In this document: positions 57,301 through 64,000 of the stretch, piece after piece | Layout: each line of letters starts with the position of its first letter | Position numbering within the stretch: position 1 is the stretch's first letter | DNA from: an uncultured delta proteobacterium | GTDB lineage: Bacteria > Myxococcota_A > Polyangia > Polyangiales > Polyangiaceae | Length of the DNA stretch: 64,000 bases | NCBI GenBank assembly: GCA_963716725.1 | Contig: CAVQUB010000015.1 | Span: 256,001-320,000 of the forward strand | Direction: 5' to 3' | Notes under the pieces: generated by a model | What the model saw: only the letters and a program-made list of their open reading frames with translations | The model's database searches: none | What the model was told of the DNA's origin: nothing | Position numbers and translations under genes: made by a program

Positions 57301-58791
57301 TACCTCGAGCCGGTGGCCGACCCGCTCGGAGATCTCTGCTCGCGCTACGCCCGCACCCACGGGCCTTTCGCCATCGAGAGCGTGCGGCAGCGCTTCGGCG
57401 TTGAGGTGCGCGACGCATTCGATCGATTGATCGCCCAGGGGCGCGTGGTCGAGGGCGAGTTCCTGCCTGGAGGACGTGGTTCGGAGCTCTGCGACGTCGA
57501 GGTGCTGCGCACGCTCAAGCGACGATCGCTGGCCAAGCTGCGTCGCGAGATCGAGCCGGTGGATGCGGCGGCGCTGGGGCGTTTCACTTGTGAATGGCAC
57601 GAGATCGGCGGCAGAGCATCGGGCCAGGATGCGCTCGCGACGGTGGTCGATCGCTTGGAGGGCGCGCCGCTGGTCGCGTCGGTGCTCGAGAGCGAGATCT
57701 TGCCCGCCCGACTGGCGCGGACCGCGAGCGCCGAGCTCGATCTCGCCTGCGCGCGCGGTGAGATCGTGTGGCGTGGGCTCGAGCCGCTCGGCGATCGAGA
57801 CGGCCGCATCGCGCTCTACCACTCGTCTCGCTACCCGCTCTTGGCGCCAGCGCCGACCCAGGTCGACGGGCAGCTTGCCGGAAAGGTCCGCGAGCTGTTG
57901 GCTGCGCGGGGCGCGTCCTTCTTCCAAGACCTCGTGCGCGGCACGGACGCGTTTGGTCGCGACGTTCTCGACGCGATCTGGGACCTGGTTTGGTCGGGCG
58001 AGGTGACGAACGACACGCTCGCGCCCCTGCGATCGCGCCTGGCGGGCGACGCGGCGCCCAGCCGGCGACAGCGCATCAGCGGGCGACGAGCGCATCCGAT
58101 GGGTCCCCCGGGCAGCGAAGGGCGCTGGTCGCTGCTGGCGTCCACGGGTGAGCGCTCCGAGACGGAACGGCGCGTGGCCTTGGCGGAGTCGCTGCTGGAA
58201 CGGCACGGCGTGCTGACGCGTGAGGCCGCGCACTCCGAAGGCCTCAGCGGAGGCTTCTCGGCGGTCTACGACGTGCTGAAACAAATGGAGGAGCGCGGGC
58301 GGGTGCGCCGTGGGTACTTCGTGGCGGGGCTCGGCGGGACTCAGTTCGCGCTGCCCGGCGCGGTCGATCGCCTGCGCCGCCGGCGCTCAGGGGCCGACGA
58401 CGCTCGGGCTCATCTGCTCGCGGCCACCGATCCGGCCAACCCTTACGGGGCCGTCGTGCCGTGGCCCGAATCGACGGAGCCGCAGCGCTTGTCGCGGAGC
58501 GCCGGCGCGAGCGTGGTGATCGTGGACGGAGCCCTCGCTGCCTACCTGGCCCGCGGCGACGCGCGGCTGCAGACCTTCTCCCGCGACGATCGGACGCTCG
58601 CTGCCGTGGCCGCCGCGCTGTTCCAGCTCTTCCGGCGCGGGCGGCGCGCGCTCCTGATCGAAGAGATCGACGGCGGGCCAGCCCAGAGCTCGGCCTTCGC
58701 GCCGGCGCTCCGGGCGGCGGGTTTTTCCGCATCATGCCAAGGCCTCCTGGCTCGGCCGAGCCTCGAAGCCGCGACGCTCGCCGCGCCCTAG
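54340..58791 (+). CDS. lhr: Long-form Lhr helicase (SF2 DExH plus C-terminal winged-helix/glycosylase region)
   Basis: APTGSGKT, DEIH, SAT, HHGS, ATSSLELGID, QRIGRAGH, GTIPDRG, RRGYFVAGLGG, ATDPANPYG. Confidence 0.93.
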   Translation: MSKGPLAHFHEPVRVWFEEALGAATPVQARGWKAIAEGRSALMLAPTGSGKTLAAFLAALDRLAFRSEPEKQQRLAVLYVSPLKALAADIEKNLVAPIAGIRAKSLELGVPCREIAVSVRTGDTPARERSAFARSPTDILITTPESLYLLLTSEARARLASVDTVIVDEIHSLAATKRGAHLFLSLERLEALRSGRPRLQRIGLSATQRPLGEIARLLGGGEVDGGVDGGVDGGVDGWGQSWSPRPVEVVDASAGKQLELRVEVPIEDMARLAGANGEGEASIWPSIHPRLVELVRAHRSSMIFVNNRRLAERLAAAINETAGETLALAHHGSVAKERRREIEERLKSGLLPAIVATSSLELGIDMGAVDLVVQIEAPPSVASGIQRIGRAGHQVGAPSKGVIVPKYRGDLLACAAAVERMMAGQVEATAYLRNPLDVLSQQIVAIASVEPIGEDDLYALVRRAAPYADLPRGSFEGVLDMLSGRYPSDEFAELRPRLTWDRRARVVRARRGAKRLAVVNAGTIPDRGLYGVFLAGSEDRPVRVGELDEEMVFECRVGDVFVLGASSWRIDEISHDRVLVRPAPGEPGRMPFWHGDRPGRAPELGLAMGALARELADAGSDTAARLRSDHALEAGAAENLRAYVRDELAATGHVPSDRTWVVERFVDEVGDFRVCLMSPMGSRVHAPLALAMRARARSERSAELECLWSDDGIVFRFPESDAPPDVAGWIPRADEIEDLLIESLGTSSLFAARFRENAARALLLPRRYPGKRSPLWAQRKRSADLLRVAARYGSFPILLETYRECLRDVFDLPALVDALRRIESRELRVVTVDTRRASPFAAALLFAYVGNFIYDDDAPLAERRARALTIDSGELAELLGEAELRELLDPEAIESAERSLLRLTEPSVAHPDQVHDLLLGLGPLSLDEIGMRVVPGADPASLLRALVDEGRVFQVTIAGDQRVVAAEDIGRLRDALGVVPSPDVPRAYLEPVADPLGDLCSRYARTHGPFAIESVRQRFGVEVRDAFDRLIAQGRVVEGEFLPGGRGSELCDVEVLRTLKRRSLAKLRREIEPVDAAALGRFTCEWHEIGGRASGQDALATVVDRLEGAPLVASVLESEILPARLARTASAELDLACARGEIVWRGLEPLGDRDGRIALYHSSRYPLLAPAPTQVDGQLAGKVRELLAARGASFFQDLVRGTDAFGRDVLDAIWDLVWSGEVTNDTLAPLRSRLAGDAAPSRRQRISGRRAHPMGPPGSEGRWSLLASTGERSETERRVALAESLLERHGVLTREAAHSEGLSGGFSAVYDVLKQMEERGRVRRGYFVAGLGGTQFALPGAVDRLRRRRSGADDARAHLLAATDPANPYGAVVPWPESTEPQRLSRSAGASVVIVDGALAAYLARGDARLQTFSRDDRTLAAVAAALFQLFRRGRRALLIEEIDGGPAQSSAFAPALRAAGFSASCQGLLARPSLEAATLAAP
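55006..55050 (+). repeat. In-frame 12-bp tandem repeat (GTCGATGGCGGG)x3.75 within lhr
   Basis: Encodes VDGGVDGGVDGGVDG between the RecA domains. Confidence 0.9.
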
Positions 58792-58798
58792 TGCCGGC

Positions 58799-59827
58799 TC
58801 ACCACTGGCCGTCGCGCACCAGGTGCTTGGCCAACAGAACGAGCTTGTTCAGCGGACCCGGTGCGACGCTGTCGTCGTCCTGGAGCGGGAGCGTGCTCTT
58901 CTGGGCGTCGAGCTGCTTCACGCTCTCGATGCGCTTCAACGCATTTGTCCCGTCGAGCGTCTCGCAGTGCTCGTCGTAGAGCGCGAACCAGGGCAGCGCG
59001 TGCTTTCGATATTCCTTCGCGGTCACAGGTGACTGCGGCGGACGCTCGCCAGTGATCTCTCGCCACAGCTCGCTGTTCACGATGTGCAGGTAGATCCGCG
59101 CGCTGGCGTCGAGATCCCAGCTGTCGATGCCGTGGGGATCGGGGTAGATCTTTTGGTGCATGCTGCCGCCGGCGCCGAGGCCCATCGACCCCGCGCTCCG
59201 CGACTTTGCGCCCGGACTCATGGACGCGCGGTAGGGACCTGCCCCGGGGGCTGCGCATGGCGCCGGCATGGCGCCGAGGGAGCACTGCCCGAGATCGCTC
59301 CTTCGTGGCGGAAAGCGCCCGGGTTTTGGCGCGCAGACCTTGATCTGGATCCCGCCGAAGCGCTCTTCGCCGGTGACCTGGCCTTCCACCGTGTACCCCA
59401 TGCCGAGCGGCATGGCGATGAACTGTCGGATGCGACCCGGTCCGACGCAGATGCCGTCGAGCCACGGTTGCGGCGGCGCGACCAGGTAGTCCTGTGGCAC
59501 GTCGTGCAAGCGTTCGGACCAGGGGTCGCCCGTCAGCGCGCAGATCTTGCCCACGGCGATCTTGACGGCGTGGGGAACCAGGCTGCCAAACGAGAGCCAC
59601 ATGGCCTCGCGCTGGTACATGGGCAGGAATACGCCGCCGCGGCCAAGCCAATCGGCCGGGACGCGATCGGCGTAGTCGTCGACGCGGCGCACCGGAAACG
59701 CCCCGAGCCCGGGCGGCAGCGGATAGCTGCGGCCGTCGTCGGGGATGCGCAGCGTGCGTTGAAAGCGGATGCTGAGGTCGTTGCCGAAGGACACGCAGTC
59801 GTTCTTCACCTGTACGTCGAGCTTCAT
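58799..59827 (-). CDS. Conserved hypothetical protein (FQRTLRIPDDG..YPLPPGLG family)
   Basis: AAGGAG RBS; motifs LPMYQREAMWLSF, QPWLDG, QFIAMPLGMGYTVEGQ, GAGG.M.QKIYPDP, LPWFALYDE. Confidence 0.8.
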   Translation of the reverse strand: MKLDVQVKNDCVSFGNDLSIRFQRTLRIPDDGRSYPLPPGLGAFPVRRVDDYADRVPADWLGRGGVFLPMYQREAMWLSFGSLVPHAVKIAVGKICALTGDPWSERLHDVPQDYLVAPPQPWLDGICVGPGRIRQFIAMPLGMGYTVEGQVTGEERFGGIQIKVCAPKPGRFPPRRSDLGQCSLGAMPAPCAAPGAGPYRASMSPGAKSRSAGSMGLGAGGSMHQKIYPDPHGIDSWDLDASARIYLHIVNSELWREITGERPPQSPVTAKEYRKHALPWFALYDEHCETLDGTNALKRIESVKQLDAQKSTLPLQDDDSVAPGPLNKLVLLAKHLVRDGQW

Positions 59828-59872
59828 CGGGTTCTCCTTCTCTGGGCGGGGTCGTCTGCCCACGAGAGAACC

Positions 59873-59991
59873 GACGGAGGGACCGCGGCGCTTGTCACGG
59901 GGTTGCCGGACAGTCGCTTCAAGTTTCCGTAAGTAAGGGAGATTTTCGGGTTCCCGGGGGGGCGCGGTGACAGGAATGGCCCGCTGTCGTC
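59873..59991. promoter_or_regulatory. Back-to-back ECF-type promoter motifs GTGACA-N15/16-CGTC
   Basis: Minus strand: GTGACA 59898-59893, 16 nt, CGTC 59876-59873; plus strand: GTGACA 59967-59972, 15 nt, CGTC 59988-59991. Confidence 0.6.
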
Positions 59992-60001
59992 TAGTGGCGA
60001 G

Positions 60002-60961
60002 GTGGATGCCCTCGCGCCGTCCCGGGAGCTGTCGATGCTGATCGCGGCGGGCGATTTGCGCCGAGCCGGAGAGTGGCTCGTGGCGCGCTACGCGCGGGAC
60101 GTGATCGCGTTGTGTCGGAGCATGGTGAGAGAGCGCGCGCTCTCGGAGGATCTGGCGCAAGACGTGTTCGCGCAGGCGTTCGCGCACCTCGGAGGCTATC
60201 GCGCGGAGGCGGCGCCCCGGACCTGGCTGCTCGCCATCGCGCGCAACCGCTGCATCGATCAGCTCCGGCGCAGCGATCGTGAGCCCTGGCGAGATGCCGA
60301 CGACGGGCTCGAGGCGGATCACCTCGCGGACGACGCTCCACTGCCGCCCGAGCTGTTGCTGCGCCGTGCCGACGTCGATGACGCCTTGAGGGATCTGGAA
60401 GAGAACGAGCGAGCGCTGATTGTTCTGCGTTTCCGCCACGGACTCGAGTACCCCGAGCTGGCGAGCGTGTTCGGTTTGCGGGAAGGCACCGTGCGCATGC
60501 GGCTGTCGCGCGCGCTCGGCAAGATGCGCAGCAGGCTCGAAGCGCGGGACGGGCAGGCAGCGTCGCTTGGGGGCAGCGCCCCCGAAGCGCAGGGCGAAGC
60601 GGCGCCCTCGCGGGGGCGAGGGGCTATCGAGCTACCCGCTCCAGGCGCGCCGCCGCCGGCCGCGGCTCGAGCGCCTTCGTTCGCGCCGCCACTTGCCTCG
60701 GAGCAAGCCCCGAGCGCCCGGCCGCTGTCCGCTCCCTCGCGCGCGAGCCGAGCCACGTCGGGCGCTCCGGCTCCGCGGGCCGTGAGCTGGCTCGAACGCC
60801 TGCGCGGCTTCTTCCGCAGCGCCCCCGAGGAGCTCGCGCCAGAAGACACCGAGCCGCAGCCGCCCACGACGCCCTTCGCGGCGGCGCTCGCCGACCCCGA
60901 CGCCGAGCCGACCGAAGGGTTCTCCCGGAAGCTGGAGGCTCTCCTGGCTGGGCTGCCCTGA
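60002..60961 (+). CDS. ECF RNA polymerase sigma factor with Pro/Ala-rich C-terminal extension
   Basis: EDLAQDVF, TWLLAIARNRCIDQLR (region 2); YPELASVFGLREGTVRMRLSRA (region 4). Confidence 0.9.
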   Translation: MDALAPSRELSMLIAAGDLRRAGEWLVARYARDVIALCRSMVRERALSEDLAQDVFAQAFAHLGGYRAEAAPRTWLLAIARNRCIDQLRRSDREPWRDADDGLEADHLADDAPLPPELLLRRADVDDALRDLEENERALIVLRFRHGLEYPELASVFGLREGTVRMRLSRALGKMRSRLEARDGQAASLGGSAPEAQGEAAPSRGRGAIELPAPGAPPPAAARAPSFAPPLASEQAPSARPLSAPSRASRATSGAPAPRAVSWLERLRGFFRSAPEELAPEDTEPQPPTTPFAAALADPDAEPTEGFSRKLEALLAGLP

Positions 60962-60968
60962 TCGGGCG

Positions 60969-63201
60969 TCAGCCGCTGCGCACGGCCTTGGCTCGGAGCG
61001 ACGCGACGCTCACGCCGCCCTTCGTTCGCACCGCGACCCGCAGCGAATCGTCAGCGTCGACCGCCGGGGTCCAGCGGATCTCGCTGCCCGTGCCTTCGAC
61101 GAGTCCCTCGGCCTCCCAGCGCCAGGTCGCGCCCGCGGGCGCGCCGCGGAGCTGCGCGTCGATGGCGTCGCCGGTGCGAGTGGCGACGATTTCGATCTCG
61201 GGTGGATCGAAGAGCGGCAGATCCCGGCTTCGCACGGCGCGCCGGGCGCCGGTGTCGACCCATTGATCGATCACGTCGAGGCGCTTGCCTGCCGGAGCGT
61301 CGCCGTCGTTGAGCGACATGCCGCCGTCGGCGGGCGGCGGATCGGCGACCATCGAGTCGTCCTCGGCGTCCGCGTCCTTGCCGCCATCGTCGGGCAGCGC
61401 ATCGACCACCATCTGATCGGGCTCCACGTCGTAGCCGCTGTCGCCCGGCAGCGGATCAGCGACGAAGTGGTCGTCCTTGCCGCCGTCGGTCGGCGGATCG
61501 GTCGAGCTGGTGTCGCCCCCGCAGCCCGTGGCGCCGAGGGCCCAGAGCGCGAGCGAAGCCGTCAGCGCGACATTGGATCTCGAGCGCGCCGGCGCACGCT
61601 TCCGTGCCCGAGGCTCCCCGAGGCGGCGGACGAAAGCGCTGATGTCGGCGTAGAACTCGTCGAGCTCGTGCTGCCAGGCTCGGTCCGAGGCGGCGACATC
61701 GAGGGCCAAGAGCGCGGTTCCGCGCTCGATGGCGTCGAAGTCATCGAGGCTCGCCGACTGAGCCAGGTCGACGGCCTTCTCGAGCAACGCGGCAGTGTCG
61801 AGGGTGATGGCGCGGGTCAGTGACTCGGCGCGCTCGAGCAAGCGTCGGTGCGCCCCCCCGAGGTCCGGGTGGAAGTGCTCCACCAGCTTGGCCGCGTAGC
61901 CCACGCCCATGTAGCGGTTGGCCACACCGTCGCAGCGGTAGTTGCGCTCGCGGAACGCCGCCGACGCGATGCGGAACGCGAGCTCCGCTCGGGCGTCGTC
62001 GATGCGGTAGTTCCAGCCGAGGTAGCTGCCGCCGATCTTGCCGGCGTCGGCCAGACCCTGTTGCAGCGGCGTGCCGTAGTAGGGCTCGGCGCGGCAGAAG
62101 TTCACGGGCTGCGTCGGGTGCTCGCGCATGAACGCGATGTTCTCGCGCACGTCGGTCGAGGGTCGCCCCGGGCTCGAATACCAGCAGATTGTAGCAGGCG
62201 AAGATCCCGGCTTGCTCGCAGGCCGCCAGCGCCTGCGCCACGGCCTGGTGCTGCACGCCGCGGTTCAAATGCTCCGAGCCCGCGCGGGCCACGTTCTCGA
62301 CTCCGACGTAGAGGCGCACGACGCCCAGCGCGCGGAGCTCGGTGGCGAGCTCGGCGGTCAGGGTCTCGGGCCGGCATTTACCGATGAATCCGGCGCCTTC
62401 GACCTGCCGCGCGCGCAGACTGTCCCGGATGGCGCGGATCCGCGCCAGCGAGTCTTCGGGTTTGGGCAACAAGAAGTTGTCGTCGTGGAAGCAGAACACG
62501 CAGGCCTCGCCGATGGCGTGGCTGAGCCCCGCCATTTCGTCGGCGATGTTCTCGGGGCTGCGGAAGCGCAGCATCGGACCGCCGCCGTCGCGCTTGGCGT
62601 CGCGGTAGAACGACGTGATGGAGCAGTACGAGCAGCTGCCCCAGCAGCCGCGAGAGGCCATGATGGGCACGAAGGGCACGCCGGCGTGGCGCGCGGGCTG
62701 GCGGTAGCGGATGGGGAAGGGCAGCGAATCGAGGCTGGTGCCCAGGCCGCGCCCGGGGTTCTTGCGGACGCCCTCCGGTGCAGCGAGGGCGAGCCCACGC
62801 ACGGAGTCTAGGGGCTCACGTCGCTCGAGCTTCTCGAGCAGCTCGACGAAGGTCTCTTCGCCGTCGTGCAGCACCACGCTGTCGACCCCGTGCCCGCGGC
62901 CGAGCACCTCGCTGAAGGCCAGGGTCGGAAACTGTCCGCCCGCCGTCACGTGTCCGCGAAAGCCCTCGCGCCGCAGCAGGCGCGCCAGCGAGAGGAACTC
63001 GTGGGAGCGGTGCTGGAACTGCATGCTGAGCCCGACGACGTCGGGCGAGTCGTGGGCTATCTCGCGAGCGATGCGCCCGCGGGAGCCCGAGTCGTTGAAG
63101 GGCACGACTCGCACCTCGTGGCCGGCACCTTGCGCCACGGCCGCGATCATCCCGAGCCCGAAATTCTCCTCGAAGTCCGCCCCGACCAGCACCACGCGCA
63201 T
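60969..63201 (-). CDS. B12-binding radical SAM protein fused to an internal lipoprotein signal, acidic repeats and a small beta domain; +1 frameshift ~62155 (~743 aa)
   Basis: VGLSMQF, AGGQFPT, SRGCWGSCSYC, FHDDNF, YVGVEN; ..ATLDDVRENI..EPYYGTPL after removing one base; LALWALGATG-C at 61521. Confidence 0.85.
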
Positions 63202-63286
63202 GGGTCACCTCCACGGCAATGCTGCGGCGCTTCGTCGGCCCTGAACATGACGGGCATCAACACCTCGGATAGGCTCGACCGTCGCG

Positions 63287-64000
63287 ATGCAGCTCATCGT
63301 CACCCACGACATGACGGACTTCGACGCTTTGGCCGCGGCGGTGGCCGCGCAGAAGCTCCATCCGGGCGCCGCGATCGCGCTGGGGCGTCGCGTGGGCAAA
63401 GAGGTGCGCGGGTACCTGGCGCTGCACAAGGACCGGTTCGTGACCTTGCTGCACTCCGAGATCGATCCGGAGCTGGTGCGCCACCTGATCGTCGTGGACG
63501 TGCGGCGCAAGAGCCGGCTCAGGGATTTTGCCCGACTGGTCGAGCGCGCGGAGCTCGGCGAGGTCGAGGTCACCGTCTACGATCACCATCCCGCCGACGA
63601 CGACGATCTGCGCGCTGACCGGGCGGTGATCGAGGCGGTCGGCTCGGCCACGACCCTGCTGGTGGAGCAGATGGACGCCGAAGACGTCGTCGTGGACGAG
63701 GTCGAGGCCACGCTGCTGGCGCTGGGCATCCACGCGGACACGGGCTCGCTCAACTATGCGGGCACCACCGCGCGCGACGCCCGTGCGCTCGGGTGGCTGC
63801 TCGACCAAGGCGCGAGCTTGGCGGTGATGAGCCGCTACCTCGAGCCGGCTTTCACCGGGGCCCAGCGAGCGCTCTTGGTGGAGCTGCTTGGCGCCATCGA
63901 GGTCGAGCACGTGGGCCACCTCGACGTCGCGTTTGTGCACAGGACCATGCCGCGGGCGGTGGAGGGCTTCGCCGAGGTGATCACCGAGATCGCGGAGCTG
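63287..64000 (+). CDS. DHH-family phosphoesterase domain protein, probably the DHH-CBS-nucleotidyltransferase (A-adding) type; runs off the window
   Basis: MQLIVTHDMTDFDALAA, LIVVD, YDHHP, VGSATT, LGIHADTGSL; absent from the ORF track because it has no stop in the window. Confidence 0.75.
   Translation, partial: MQLIVTHDMTDFDALAAAVAAQKLHPGAAIALGRRVGKEVRGYLALHKDRFVTLLHSEIDPELVRHLIVVDVRRKSRLRDFARLVERAELGEVEVTVYDHHPADDDDLRADRAVIEAVGSATTLLVEQMDAEDVVVDEVEATLLALGIHADTGSLNYAGTTARDARALGWLLDQGASLAVMSRYLEPAFTGAQRALLVELLGAIEVEHVGHLDVAFVHRTMPRAVEGFAEVITEIAEL

Follow-up and report, generated by a model that had tools for sequence, protein, structure and literature searches.

A single intact gene on the minus strand of the window (the whole stretch of 64,000 nucleotides that was analysed) encodes, in this order, a B12-binding domain, a radical SAM core, a helical domain, a basic stretch, a hydrophobic stretch, a Cys residue, a set of repeats and an Ig/PKD-like domain. 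The leading reading, put forward tentatively, is that one chain may give rise to both an enzyme and a lipoprotein, with the enzyme modifying the repeats of its own tail before export. The domains proposed in an earlier note were all recovered in the order and positions that it had claimed, and are as follows:

60969 to 63201, minus strand: whole gene (ORF list; 11 orthologues with single frames of 738-784 aa that share the start; orthologues and contigs without base 62153)
62836 to 63168, minus strand: cobalamin (B12)-binding domain (PF02310, E 1e-16, 61.3 bits against a cut-off of 32.1, ORF A residues 12-122)
62155 to 62655, minus strand: radical SAM core as far as the frame break (PF04055, E 4.6e-15, ORF A residues 183-349)
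62153 to 62153, no strand given: single extra base breaking the frame, an assembly error or minor variant (absent in 5/5 same-genus orthologues and in every contig reaching the site, runs X1, X5 and X9)
61617 to 62150, minus strand: end of the barrel (NFCRAEPYYGTPL) and C-terminal helical domain (translation; orthologue model)
61575 to 61616, minus strand: basic n-region EPRARKRAPARSRS (translation; net charge in the family)
61524 to 61574, minus strand: short hydrophobic h-region NVALTASLALWALGATG (translation; lengths in the family)
61521 to 61523, minus strand: lipobox-type Cys, GATG-C-GGD (translation; kept in 76/77 tails)
61320 to 61505, minus strand: acidic proline repeats, a degenerate STDPPTDGG and three full units HFVADPLPGDSG, QMVVDALPDDGG and SMVADPPPADGG (translation; family consensus)
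61200 to 61283, minus strand: conserved linear stretch ahead of the sandwich, RLDVIDQWVDTGARRAVRSRDLPLFDPP (Q, W, D and PP invariant in 11/11 orthologues)
60972 to 61199, minus strand: C-terminal Ig/PKD-like beta-sandwich (seven strands in an AlphaFold model, pLDDT about 90)

Integrity of the gene and spread of the fusion

Once base 62153 is discounted, the gene (63201 to 60969, minus strand) comprises about 743 codons and a stop. As it stands in the window it is divided between ORF A (63201 to 61741, minus strand), which carries the B12-binding and Radical_SAM domains, and ORF B (62150 to 60969, minus strand), which lies in a different frame and runs onward from NFCRAEPYYGTPL and the helical region. 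The earlier note had repaired an indel at about 62155, and rightly so, given that orthologues and contigs are without the base. Logan contigs from four runs of four studies (X1, X5, X9 and X10) were compared at the site, where X10 has no coverage. Two contigs of run X5 span the position with the base omitted (17.3 of 17.3 depth), and the contigs of X1, X5 and X9 that end at the site have loose ends continuing with 62153 skipped; no contig containing the base was found in these three runs. Run X1 is not independent, since it is possibly the window's own sample. Without 62153 the strand translates as GATLDHVRENIAF, which resembles the ATL[AG]HVRENIAF of the orthologues. The gene is intact, because the base is missing from five same-genus orthologues and from all public contigs reaching the site in three runs. 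A separation into two genes, which had been named as an outcome that would overturn the fusion, did not appear in these contigs.

The fusion itself does not depend on the frameshift, as had been claimed, since the tail follows the end of the enzyme (EPYYGTPL) in the same frame with no stop between them. A start codon for a separate tail is also absent, there being no in-frame ATG, GTG or TTG from codon 148 of ORF B to the Cys codon 210 (62 codons). An internal tail start was considered and rejected: a Met stands right before the h-region in some orthologues (L009, L011, L013 and L014), and it is neither conserved nor present in the window.

The gene was found in 13 relatives and is a single open frame in 11 of them, the orthologues of G034 and G037 being split over frames. 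The same fusion occurs at 80 public loci, found by a search with full-length alignment, in MAGs of Myxococcota, mostly Polyangia, and most of these loci also show one frame. Judging from the sequences, the fusion is real and old, given the single open frame in 11/13 relatives and the 80 public loci; homologues lacking the tail had been proposed as a refutation, and when they were sought the fusion held. All family members derive from MAGs and, as far as searched, the family is confined to those of Myxococcota. Neither gene callers nor databases give it a name other than the generic 'radical SAM protein'.

Enzyme and tail are exclusive to each other. The Ig-like domain is present in 129 representatives at E<=1e-10 among 1.84 billion proteins, and all 13 matches to it of at least 669 aa carry a radical SAM N-terminus (first 135 checked). 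Of 38 tail relatives with lengths of 405-1292 aa, 37 carry PF04055. Stand-alone tail genes were also considered, but the short representatives of the Ig-like domain mostly begin inside the helical domain or the repeats and look like fragments from short contigs.

The surroundings of the gene offer no partner. In the window 86 bp separate the gene from a divergent one upstream and 7 bp from a convergent one downstream, leaving no space for an extra small gene beside it, and Rfam gave no match over positions 58000-64000. No gene cluster is common to more than 12 of 81 loci, with neighbours called only from ORFs of at least 80 aa with high GC3, so that smaller genes would escape.

The enzyme and its tail

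The first 535 or so residues are, by their domains, motif and predicted fold, a cytoplasmic cobalamin-dependent (class B) radical SAM enzyme. The CxxxCxxC motif is CWGSCSYC (62646 to 62623, minus strand) and its three Cys residues are invariant in 58/58 aligned family members. The model of an orthologue of 83% identity is confidently predicted over residues 1-533 and shows long helices, one at 450-482 and another at 488-528. A Foldseek search with this model retrieved OxsB (8.3e-21), TsrM (3.2e-18), MgmA (1.2e-17), CysS (3.8e-15) and TokK (3e-14), and a profile search against the PDB also gave OxsB (E 1e-12). The scores lie below the cut-offs of the curated subfamilies: 77 against 750 bits for ApyD (NF050148), 76.1 against 650 for HpnR (TIGR04367) and 50.2 against 281.85 for the RiPP C-methyltransferase (TIGR03975). 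The protein is no less similar to HpnR (the hopanoid methylase), BchE and the ladderane-lipid enzyme than to RiPP enzymes, and no RiPP recognition element (RRE) was found in it by Pfam. A complex prediction for the orthologue core (residues 1-533) with its repeats (561-636), SAM and a 4Fe-4S cluster, run without controls, gave a score of 0.00 and a mark of 0.32.

Behind the enzyme stands a segment with the anatomy of a lipoprotein signal. Signal statistics are based on 77 tails long enough to judge, of which 75 were tabulated. The 15 residues before the hydrophobic stretch have a median net charge of +4, and the uncharged stretch has 13-24 residues with a median of 17; in 31/75 members it has 16 residues or fewer, a short length for a membrane-spanning helix. 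Conservation of the internal lipobox had been proposed as a check, and it is borne out by a Cys in 76/77 tails preceded at -1 by G (48), A (25) or S (2) in all 75 tabulated. The classical lipobox is L-[AS]-[GA]-C, with a Leu-type residue at -3. Here position -3 is A in 24, T in 13, V in 10, G in 9, S in 7 and L in 6 of the 75, so that Leu is rare; A and V are also frequent at -3 in the N-terminal lipoprotein-like signals of the window's genome (G000), a set defined by a rough regular expression. The sole member lacking the Cys, L095, has the small residues S and S at -3 and -1 before its first repeat. Small residues at these positions would suit a signal peptidase I site.

The Cys is at about residue 560 of some 743, and the signal lies about 545 residues inside the protein, unlike the N-terminal signals of lipoprotein precursors, and in the orthologue model this segment forms no ordered helix (pLDDT <50). 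G000 encodes both LspA (117.7 bits) and Lgt (best 223.9 bits). It is very probable from this pattern that the tail passes through the membrane, and likely that it is lipidated and cleaved at the Cys. The C-terminal anchoring domain NF058595 ('lipo-invert', a term not found in the literature) was examined and dropped, because its match on the hydrophobic segment is below the cut-off of 37 (17.5 bits for the window protein, 15.0 for an orthologue) and it is not among the matches at E<=1 for the other nine tails.

The repeats follow the pattern [FM]V[AV]D[PA]xPxDxG, with 3-4 units in the window gene, and their family consensus is D-G-M-V-V-D-P-[PLV]-P-P-D-A-G-x-D. Conservation of the V-x-D-P repeats with a variable number had been proposed as a further check, and it holds, as 2-12 copies occur across the family. 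Scanned in six frames, the entire 7.9-Mb genome (completeness 84%, contamination 3.9%) has the pattern three times, all within ORF B, and a looser pattern likewise only in ORF B; the stand-alone proteins with the same repeats that had been suggested for a search are therefore absent from G000. Outside the orthologues, a search of 60 relatives with one query gave only two marginal matches to the repeats, in G032 (with stops) and in G040:C71 (E 0.006).

The small beta-rich domain of the earlier note appears, from the AlphaFold model and VIA-align, to be an Ig/PKD-like sandwich. The best Z values were 7.6 (an Ig domain) and 7.5 (PKD1 of PrtV), in a range which the tool calls common. Profile matches to Big_9/PKD repeat proteins are distant and weak, no Pfam match was found for the domain, and Foldseek against the PDB gave nothing at E<=0.001 (best E 9.6e-3); an Atlas search returned a lone PKD lead at 0.77. 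The stretch RLDVIDQWVDTGARRAVRSRDLPLFDPP has low confidence in the model of the domain alone. Conservation of the sequence extends to the last residue.

Two paralogous enzyme clades possess the same basic-hydrophobic-[AG]C element followed by other motifs conserved in their tails, PPPDPLPPP (2-5 copies) in one and HPTEMVAxP/RPEMAPRP in the other. In a quick enzyme tree each tail type corresponds to one clade (SH-aLRT 100) and tail-less clades are interspersed among the tailed ones, which indicates that the enzyme fold needs no tail. The tails of paralogue P3 have a weak match to the TonB C-terminal domain (20.8 bits against a cut-off of 27.1, E 3.7e-4) and those of paralogue P2 contain no folded domain at all. 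In the relative L128 a run of EPEPEPEP and a region resembling a PEGA domain by eye were seen.

Possible fates of the fused protein

The sequences show that the gene is intact, in what order its domains stand, that each element is conserved, that enzyme and tail pair exclusively and that G000 has lgt and lspA. What we infer are the topology, the export, the lipidation and the cleavage, and above all the self-modification and its chemistry. The folded enzyme would remain in the cytoplasm and the internal signal would carry the C-terminal residues, about 185, over the inner membrane via Sec, where Lgt would lipidate the Cys and LspA would cut ahead of it. Two products would result: the enzyme itself, and a lipoprotein consisting of an Ig-like domain on an acidic proline-repeat tether. 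The reason for the fusion would be that the enzyme acts on its own Phi-V-V-D-P-x-P repeats before export, in cis or in trans within an oligomer, by a reaction of the kind usual for class B enzymes, C-methylation being the most likely. Seen as a RiPP, the system would have the enzyme and signal as its 'leader', the lipobox the site of leader cleavage and the repeats the cores.

Self-modification is supported indirectly by the strict co-occurrence of enzyme and tail, the lack of a conserved neighbour and the clade-specific tail motifs. Several points count against the explanation as a whole: acidic proline-rich stretches also resemble a tether spanning the periplasm, a peptide product needs no folded Ig-like domain, and the scores against RiPP radical SAM models lie far below their cut-offs and equal those against a lipid methylase (ApyD 77, HpnR 76.1 bits). 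The missing Pfam RRE, the weak TonB match in a paralogue tail, Leu at -3 in only 6/75, the tail-less clades and the restriction of the family to MAGs weigh on the same side. Since the C-terminal domain appears to be an Ig/PKD-like sandwich, an exported product would look closer to an ordinary tethered lipoprotein than to a lipopeptide.

The signal-peptide anatomy, together with Lgt and LspA, fits equally well with a processed polyprotein without self-modification. Its internal signal would likewise yield an enzyme and a lipoprotein; the enzyme would have its substrate elsewhere (a lipid, a cofactor or another protein) and the fusion would provide 1:1 co-production, or membrane placement via the retained signal segment. 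The similarity to HpnR, BchE and the ladderane-lipid enzyme, the ordinary lipoprotein look of the Ig-like domain and tether, and the tail-less sister clades agree with this. Nevertheless it leaves unexplained that three enzyme clades each keep their own residue-level motif in variable copies, and that the enzyme was never found without the repeats and the Ig-like domain, nor these without the enzyme, and no conserved neighbour indicates another pathway. This explanation appears rather improbable. A similarly low probability is given to an uncleaved bitopic membrane protein, with a signal anchor, a Cys of some other role, the enzyme at the inner membrane face and the repeats and Ig-like domain as a TonB-like periplasmic arm for localisation or sensing. 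The succession of anchor, proline-rich spacer and C-terminal domain does resemble that of TonB, the P3 tails give their sub-cut-off TonB match, L128 has its EPEPEPEP run and PEGA-like region, and the two long helices run into the hydrophobic segment. However, the Cys is kept with G, A or S before it while the rest of the segment varies freely, the uncharged stretch has just 13-16 residues in 31/75 members, the P2 tails are without a folded domain, and the repeats are conserved as a motif, beyond mere composition.

The frame break at 62153, the incompleteness and contamination of G000 and the frame-split orthologues of G034 and G037 could suggest that this MAG has a pseudogene here, two separate genes or a chimera of assembly. 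This is highly improbable in view of the absence of the base from orthologues and contigs, the single frame in 11 relatives and in the majority of the 80 public loci, the tail without an in-frame start and the conservation up to the last residue.

The preferred reading, that of an enzyme modifying its own tail, can be extended to a ribosomal protein-maturation module of a new kind, a wider claim which is possible if doubtful. A B12 radical SAM enzyme would be the leader of its own multi-core substrate, and Sec, Lgt and LspA would remove this leader and export the product; the envelope of Polyangia would then contain lipid-anchored proteins or lipopeptides with radical modifications such as C-methylation. 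Self-contained single-gene pairs of enzyme and motif would number three or more (Phi-V-V-D-P-x-P; PPPDPLPPP; HPTEMVAxP/RPEMAPRP).

The cytoplasm is where radical SAM enzymes act, and a lipoprotein signal is assumed to be N-terminal. A conserved family with a lipobox-type signal behind a cobalamin enzyme of 535 residues challenges both annotation habits. If the tail is processed, this would be the first internal lipoprotein signal as far as known, and a single chain would supply both a cytoplasmic and an envelope protein. Should the enzyme modify its own repeats, single genes without neighbours would be complete modification systems, invisible to cluster-based genome mining, and new chemistry on Asp/Val/Pro-rich motifs would be indicated. 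The family lends itself to clean tests: a single gene is involved, the Cys and the cluster motif are invariant, and mass spectrometry can follow the repeats easily.

Comparison with known systems

The earlier note knew of no described system with this layout, and our literature searches also found no description. Searches for 'internal lipobox', for internal signal peptide with lipoprotein and polyprotein, and for cobalamin-dependent radical SAM with transmembrane helix found nothing, and none of the matches listed for radical SAM with lipobox, as far as their available text goes, concerns such a fusion. We know of no demonstrated internal lipoprotein signal.

The protein shares its B12-binding domain, CxxxCxxC barrel and helical C-terminal domain with class B enzymes of solved structure (OxsB, TsrM, MgmA, CysS and TokK) and with those represented in NCBIfam (ApyD, HpnR and BchE). 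No signal segment or exported tail is known to us in any of them. According to its PDB title, MgmA acts on a protein or peptide. The report on ApyD describes the beta-methylation of a Tyr in a peptide, giving beta-methyltyrosine (PMC10635010). ApyD also has an RRE (PMC10635010), and its precursor is separate, whereas the window protein has no RRE by Pfam and no conserved neighbour.

Bacterial lipoprotein precursors of the Lgt/LspA/Lnt pathway have the same positive n-region, short h-region, small residue and Cys, followed by a tether rich in G, S and D, as in the N-terminal signals of G000. Their signal is N-terminal, whereas here it lies behind a folded cytoplasmic enzyme, -3 is rarely Leu and processing is putative. 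TonB-type arms also share the anchor, the proline-rich spacer and a small C-terminal domain; in the window protein, by contrast, there is no match to the TonB C-terminal domain, the domain is Ig/PKD-like, the anchor has a lipobox and the cytoplasmic part is an enzyme of 535 residues.

In borosins an ordinary SAM-dependent N-methyltransferase is fused to its own core peptide, with no known export signal. The proposed logic is the same as in the OphMA type, with the enzyme N-terminal to its substrate in one chain, self-modification being putative here. Unlike borosins, the enzyme is a B12 radical SAM protein and the suspected cores are multi-copy repeats after a lipoprotein signal. Another likeness is to FbcH, the cytochrome b/c1 polyprotein of Bradyrhizobium, which is split by signal peptidase I at an internal signal into two subunits of one complex. 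FbcH joins in one chain a part that stays in the membrane or cytoplasm and one that is exported, and these are separated at an internal signal, as is proposed here; in contrast to FbcH, the signal of the window protein is of the lipobox type and the part ahead of it a soluble-type enzyme.

Gene layout and the frame break

The radical SAM gene occupies 63201..60969 of the minus strand. Its parts and its neighbours are as follows.

63201..61741, minus strand: ORF A, beginning MRVVLVGADFEENFG, with the B12-binding domain (PF02310, E 1e-16) and the radical SAM core with CWGSCSYC (PF04055, E 4.6e-15)
62150..60969, minus strand: ORF B, 393 codons, in another frame than ORF A; NFCRAEPYYGTPL, the helical region, EPRARKRAPARSRS, then NVALTASLALWALGATG, Cys and GGD
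61523..61521, minus strand: lipobox-type Cys, between NVALTASLALWALGATG and GGD
After Cys-GGD, minus strand: four acidic proline units, STDPPTDGG, HFVADPLPGDSG, QMVVDALPDDGG and SMVADPPPADGG
3' of the repeats, minus strand: linear conserved stretch (IDQW...DLPLFDPP), then the beta-rich end
63287-64000, plus strand: gene of a DHH-family phosphoesterase, diverging from the radical SAM gene (86 bp from start to start) and running past the window edge
60002-60961, plus strand: ECF-type sigma factor gene (Sigma70_r2 and r4), convergent, ending 7 bp from the radical SAM gene stop on its downstream side
58802-59899, minus strand: ORF of about 366 aa (MKLDVQVKNDCVSF...RIPDDGRSYPLPPG...), no Pfam match

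The ORFs, the Pfam matches and the orthologues confirm that enzyme, lipobox, repeats and beta-rich domain form one chain, as the earlier note had read it. The tail is indeed in frame with the enzyme end, ORF B having no stop codon between them, and, reading back from the Cys, the first in-frame start codon is a TTG at a distance of 62 codons.

The frame break at 62153 is spurious. Five same-genus orthologues lack one base that the window has, and with base 62153 removed the protein reads GATLDHVRENIAF, in agreement with their ATL[AG]HVRENIAF, in a gene of about 743 codons. Logan contigs of four sequencing runs from four studies were compared over 61700-62600. Two contigs of X5 span the site without the base (17.3 of 17.3 depth), and in X1, X5 and X9 contigs end at 62152 or start at 62154, their loose ends continuing with 62153 skipped. 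The base is in no Logan contig of these three runs, X10 being without coverage there; X1 is possibly the window's own sample and so not independent, while X5 and X9 come from other studies. Since contigs lose rare variants, a minority variant with the base may exist. The indel repair made in the earlier note is thus upheld by the five orthologues and by contigs from X1, X5 and X9. The orthologues in two relatives' genomes, G034 (L017, C19:406894-408134) and G037 (L015, C35:35816-37044), are also split, into two or three frames, which may reflect indel errors of few-contig assemblies, or decay.

The sigma factor has an Ala/Pro/Ser-rich C-terminal extension of about 135 residues, and its gene is not kept as a neighbour at other loci. 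A longer call of the 58802-59899 ORF, 58799-60439, runs into the sigma gene and probably extends too far. An ORF similar to the 58802-59899 one adjoins the radical SAM gene in three loci only. No conserved neighbour gene was found among ORFs of at least 80 aa, the best cluster covering 12 of 81 loci.

A family of fused enzymes and tails

Among 60 relatives, 13 genomes carry an orthologue, in a single open frame in 11. The 11 full-length orthologues (738-784 aa) can be aligned from the first Met to the final residues; all keep the Cys that follows the hydrophobic segment, and their end domains have QW.D, PP, W.P and VA.R..GG without exception. A scan of public genomes, one per species, found 92 relatives, of which 80 loci were retained, all from MAGs. 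They are labelled Polyangiaceae, Polyangium, Byssovorax, Sandaracinaceae, Sandaracinus, Polyangiales, Polyangia, Myxococcales, Myxococcaceae, Myxococcota, Bradymonadia or 'delta proteobacterium', and one Pseudomonadota. A protein was obtained for 79 (none for L092), L048 and L090 being too short to judge. The refuting conditions named in the earlier note, homologues without the tail or a separation into two genes, did not refute the fusion, and the observation in the window is confirmed and widened to a family.

The Cys is present in 76 of 77 judgeable tails, 75 by script and L047 read from its string. In those 75 the preceding residue is G (48), A (25) or S (2), the uncharged stretch spans 13-24 residues, with a median of 17 and a length of at most 16 in 31 of them, and the 15 residues ahead of it have a median net charge of +4. 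The repeats have the consensus D-G-M-V-V-D-P-[PLV]-P-P-D-A-G-x-D, each protein having 2-12 units and the family as a whole 441 loosely defined D-x-x-P units. Conservation of the internal lipobox and of V-x-D-P repeats in varying copy number, both proposed in the earlier note as checks, was therefore found. Clade-specific versions of the repeat read VMPVDPPPPPT in Sandaracinaceae/Sandaracinus (L061, L075, L078), YMIADMLPPPDAG or IVYDPLPPPDA in fen Myxococcales (L080-L083, L086) and GGY-V-x-D-M-L-P-x-GG in L089; a D-[PM]-x-P core is retained in all these versions. The end domain was recognized by pattern in 64 of 79 proteins and by eye in eight (L054, L080, L081, L089, L095, L096, L100, L103), while the other seven run into a contig end, are short or leave the frame.

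The sole family member without the Cys is L095 (8001-10382), labelled Pseudomonadota and the first family branch in a quick tree. Its segment ends ...VVAGAASVS, followed directly by DPLPPDGG; small residues thus stand at -3 and -1 ahead of the first repeat, which would presumably suit signal peptidase I.

Enzyme and tail are found together. An end-domain profile run against 1.84 billion representatives gave 151 matches, 129 at E 1e-10 or better, and among the first 135 the radical SAM enzyme is N-terminal in all 13 proteins of at least 669 aa. The short matches look like fragments, most of them beginning within the repeats or the helical domain, and the weakest are Big_9/PKD/Ig repeat proteins. 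A word-based tail search gave 38 proteins (405-1292 aa, with generic names only), 37 with PF04055. The stand-alone proteins with these repeats that the earlier note suggested seeking are absent from the 7.9-Mb genome of the window, where the motif occurs only in this gene; with the query used, no repeats were found outside orthologues in the 60 relatives save two marginal matches.

A model of a 738-aa orthologue (58-row alignment, mean pLDDT 83.5) is confident for residues 1-533, with two long helices (450-482, 488-528), and for 650-738. The basic stretch, the hydrophobic segment and the repeats (534-640) have pLDDT below 50 and no modelled helix. Seven strands make up the end domain, a sandwich with generic Ig/PKD-like structural matches only. 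The enzyme part structurally matches OxsB, TsrM, MgmA, AprD4, CysS and TokK, OxsB being also its best sequence-profile match (1e-12). It has the features of class B radical SAM enzymes but belongs to none of the curated subfamilies. The gene product shares the anatomy of lipoprotein precursors without their defining N-terminal signal position. The literature searched, in which most subscription journals are missing, gave no account of an internal lipobox or an exported tail on a radical SAM enzyme. As far as searched, the architecture is an undescribed variation on a known kind of enzyme.

Other tails in the same genome

Two further B12 radical SAM genes of the genome (enzyme identity 37-39%) carry a comparable element.

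Contig C3, about 239869-240456: paralogue L002, basic / hydrophobic / [AG]-Cys, proline-rich tail
Contig C12, about 73304-73915: paralogue L003, basic / hydrophobic / [AG]-Cys, proline-rich tail

A fourth such gene (C9) has neither signal element nor tail. In relatives, C3-type tails read [TS]PLAC-DPL(A)PPPPDPLPPP, with PPPDPLPPP two to five times and no folded domain. C12-type tails have HPTEMVAxP directly behind the Cys and RPEMAPRP-type repeats, with a TonB C-terminal match that is weak (20.8 bits, cut-off 27.1). L125 and L128 have yet other tails after A-Cys, and four relatives have no tail. In the quick tree of 34 enzyme cores, hand-picked from the gathered loci, every tail type corresponds to a single clade (SH-aLRT 100), and clades without a tail fall between the tailed ones.

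Export and possible self-modification

By established rules, the charge distribution (positive inside), together with the cofactors that the enzyme requires, would make the enzyme part cytoplasmic and leave the acidic tail external. The hydrophobic segment looks like a cleavable signal and not an anchor, because it is short, only the Cys and its small preceding residue are fixed, and the genome has LspA (a single match) and several Lgt homologues (five matches at four loci, on C13, C3, C14 and C2, all above the curated cut-off, the two on C14 being adjoining parts of one model). With these features and the residues of L095, it is likely that the tail is exported, lipidated and cleaved. An uncleaved, TonB-like membrane arm, to which the weak TonB match of C12-type tails could be compared, is a rather unlikely alternative.

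The earlier note proposed that the enzyme modifies its own repeats in cis. Such modification of the tail before it leaves the cytoplasm is our leading reading, placed above two rivals of about equal weight, though tentatively. Three clades or more retain a cytoplasmic enzyme fused to a probably exported protein, each clade under its own residue-level motif, with no partner genes and the two parts never apart, and the tail as substrate is the simplest answer to this. The signal, moderately hydrophobic and not N-terminal, would favour late post-translational export, leaving time to modify. Against self-modification, acidic proline-rich stretches resemble periplasmic tethers, a peptide product would need no Ig-like domain, Pfam detects no RRE in the protein, and by curated-model scores lipid methylases are as similar to the enzyme as RiPP enzymes. 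In the other rival reading the signal is processed but the enzyme leaves its own tail alone, which we consider just as unlikely as the membrane arm. Self-modification is an attractive and testable possibility. The proposed logic resembles that of borosins, which are enzymes joined to their core peptide, and that of polyproteins split at an internal signal.
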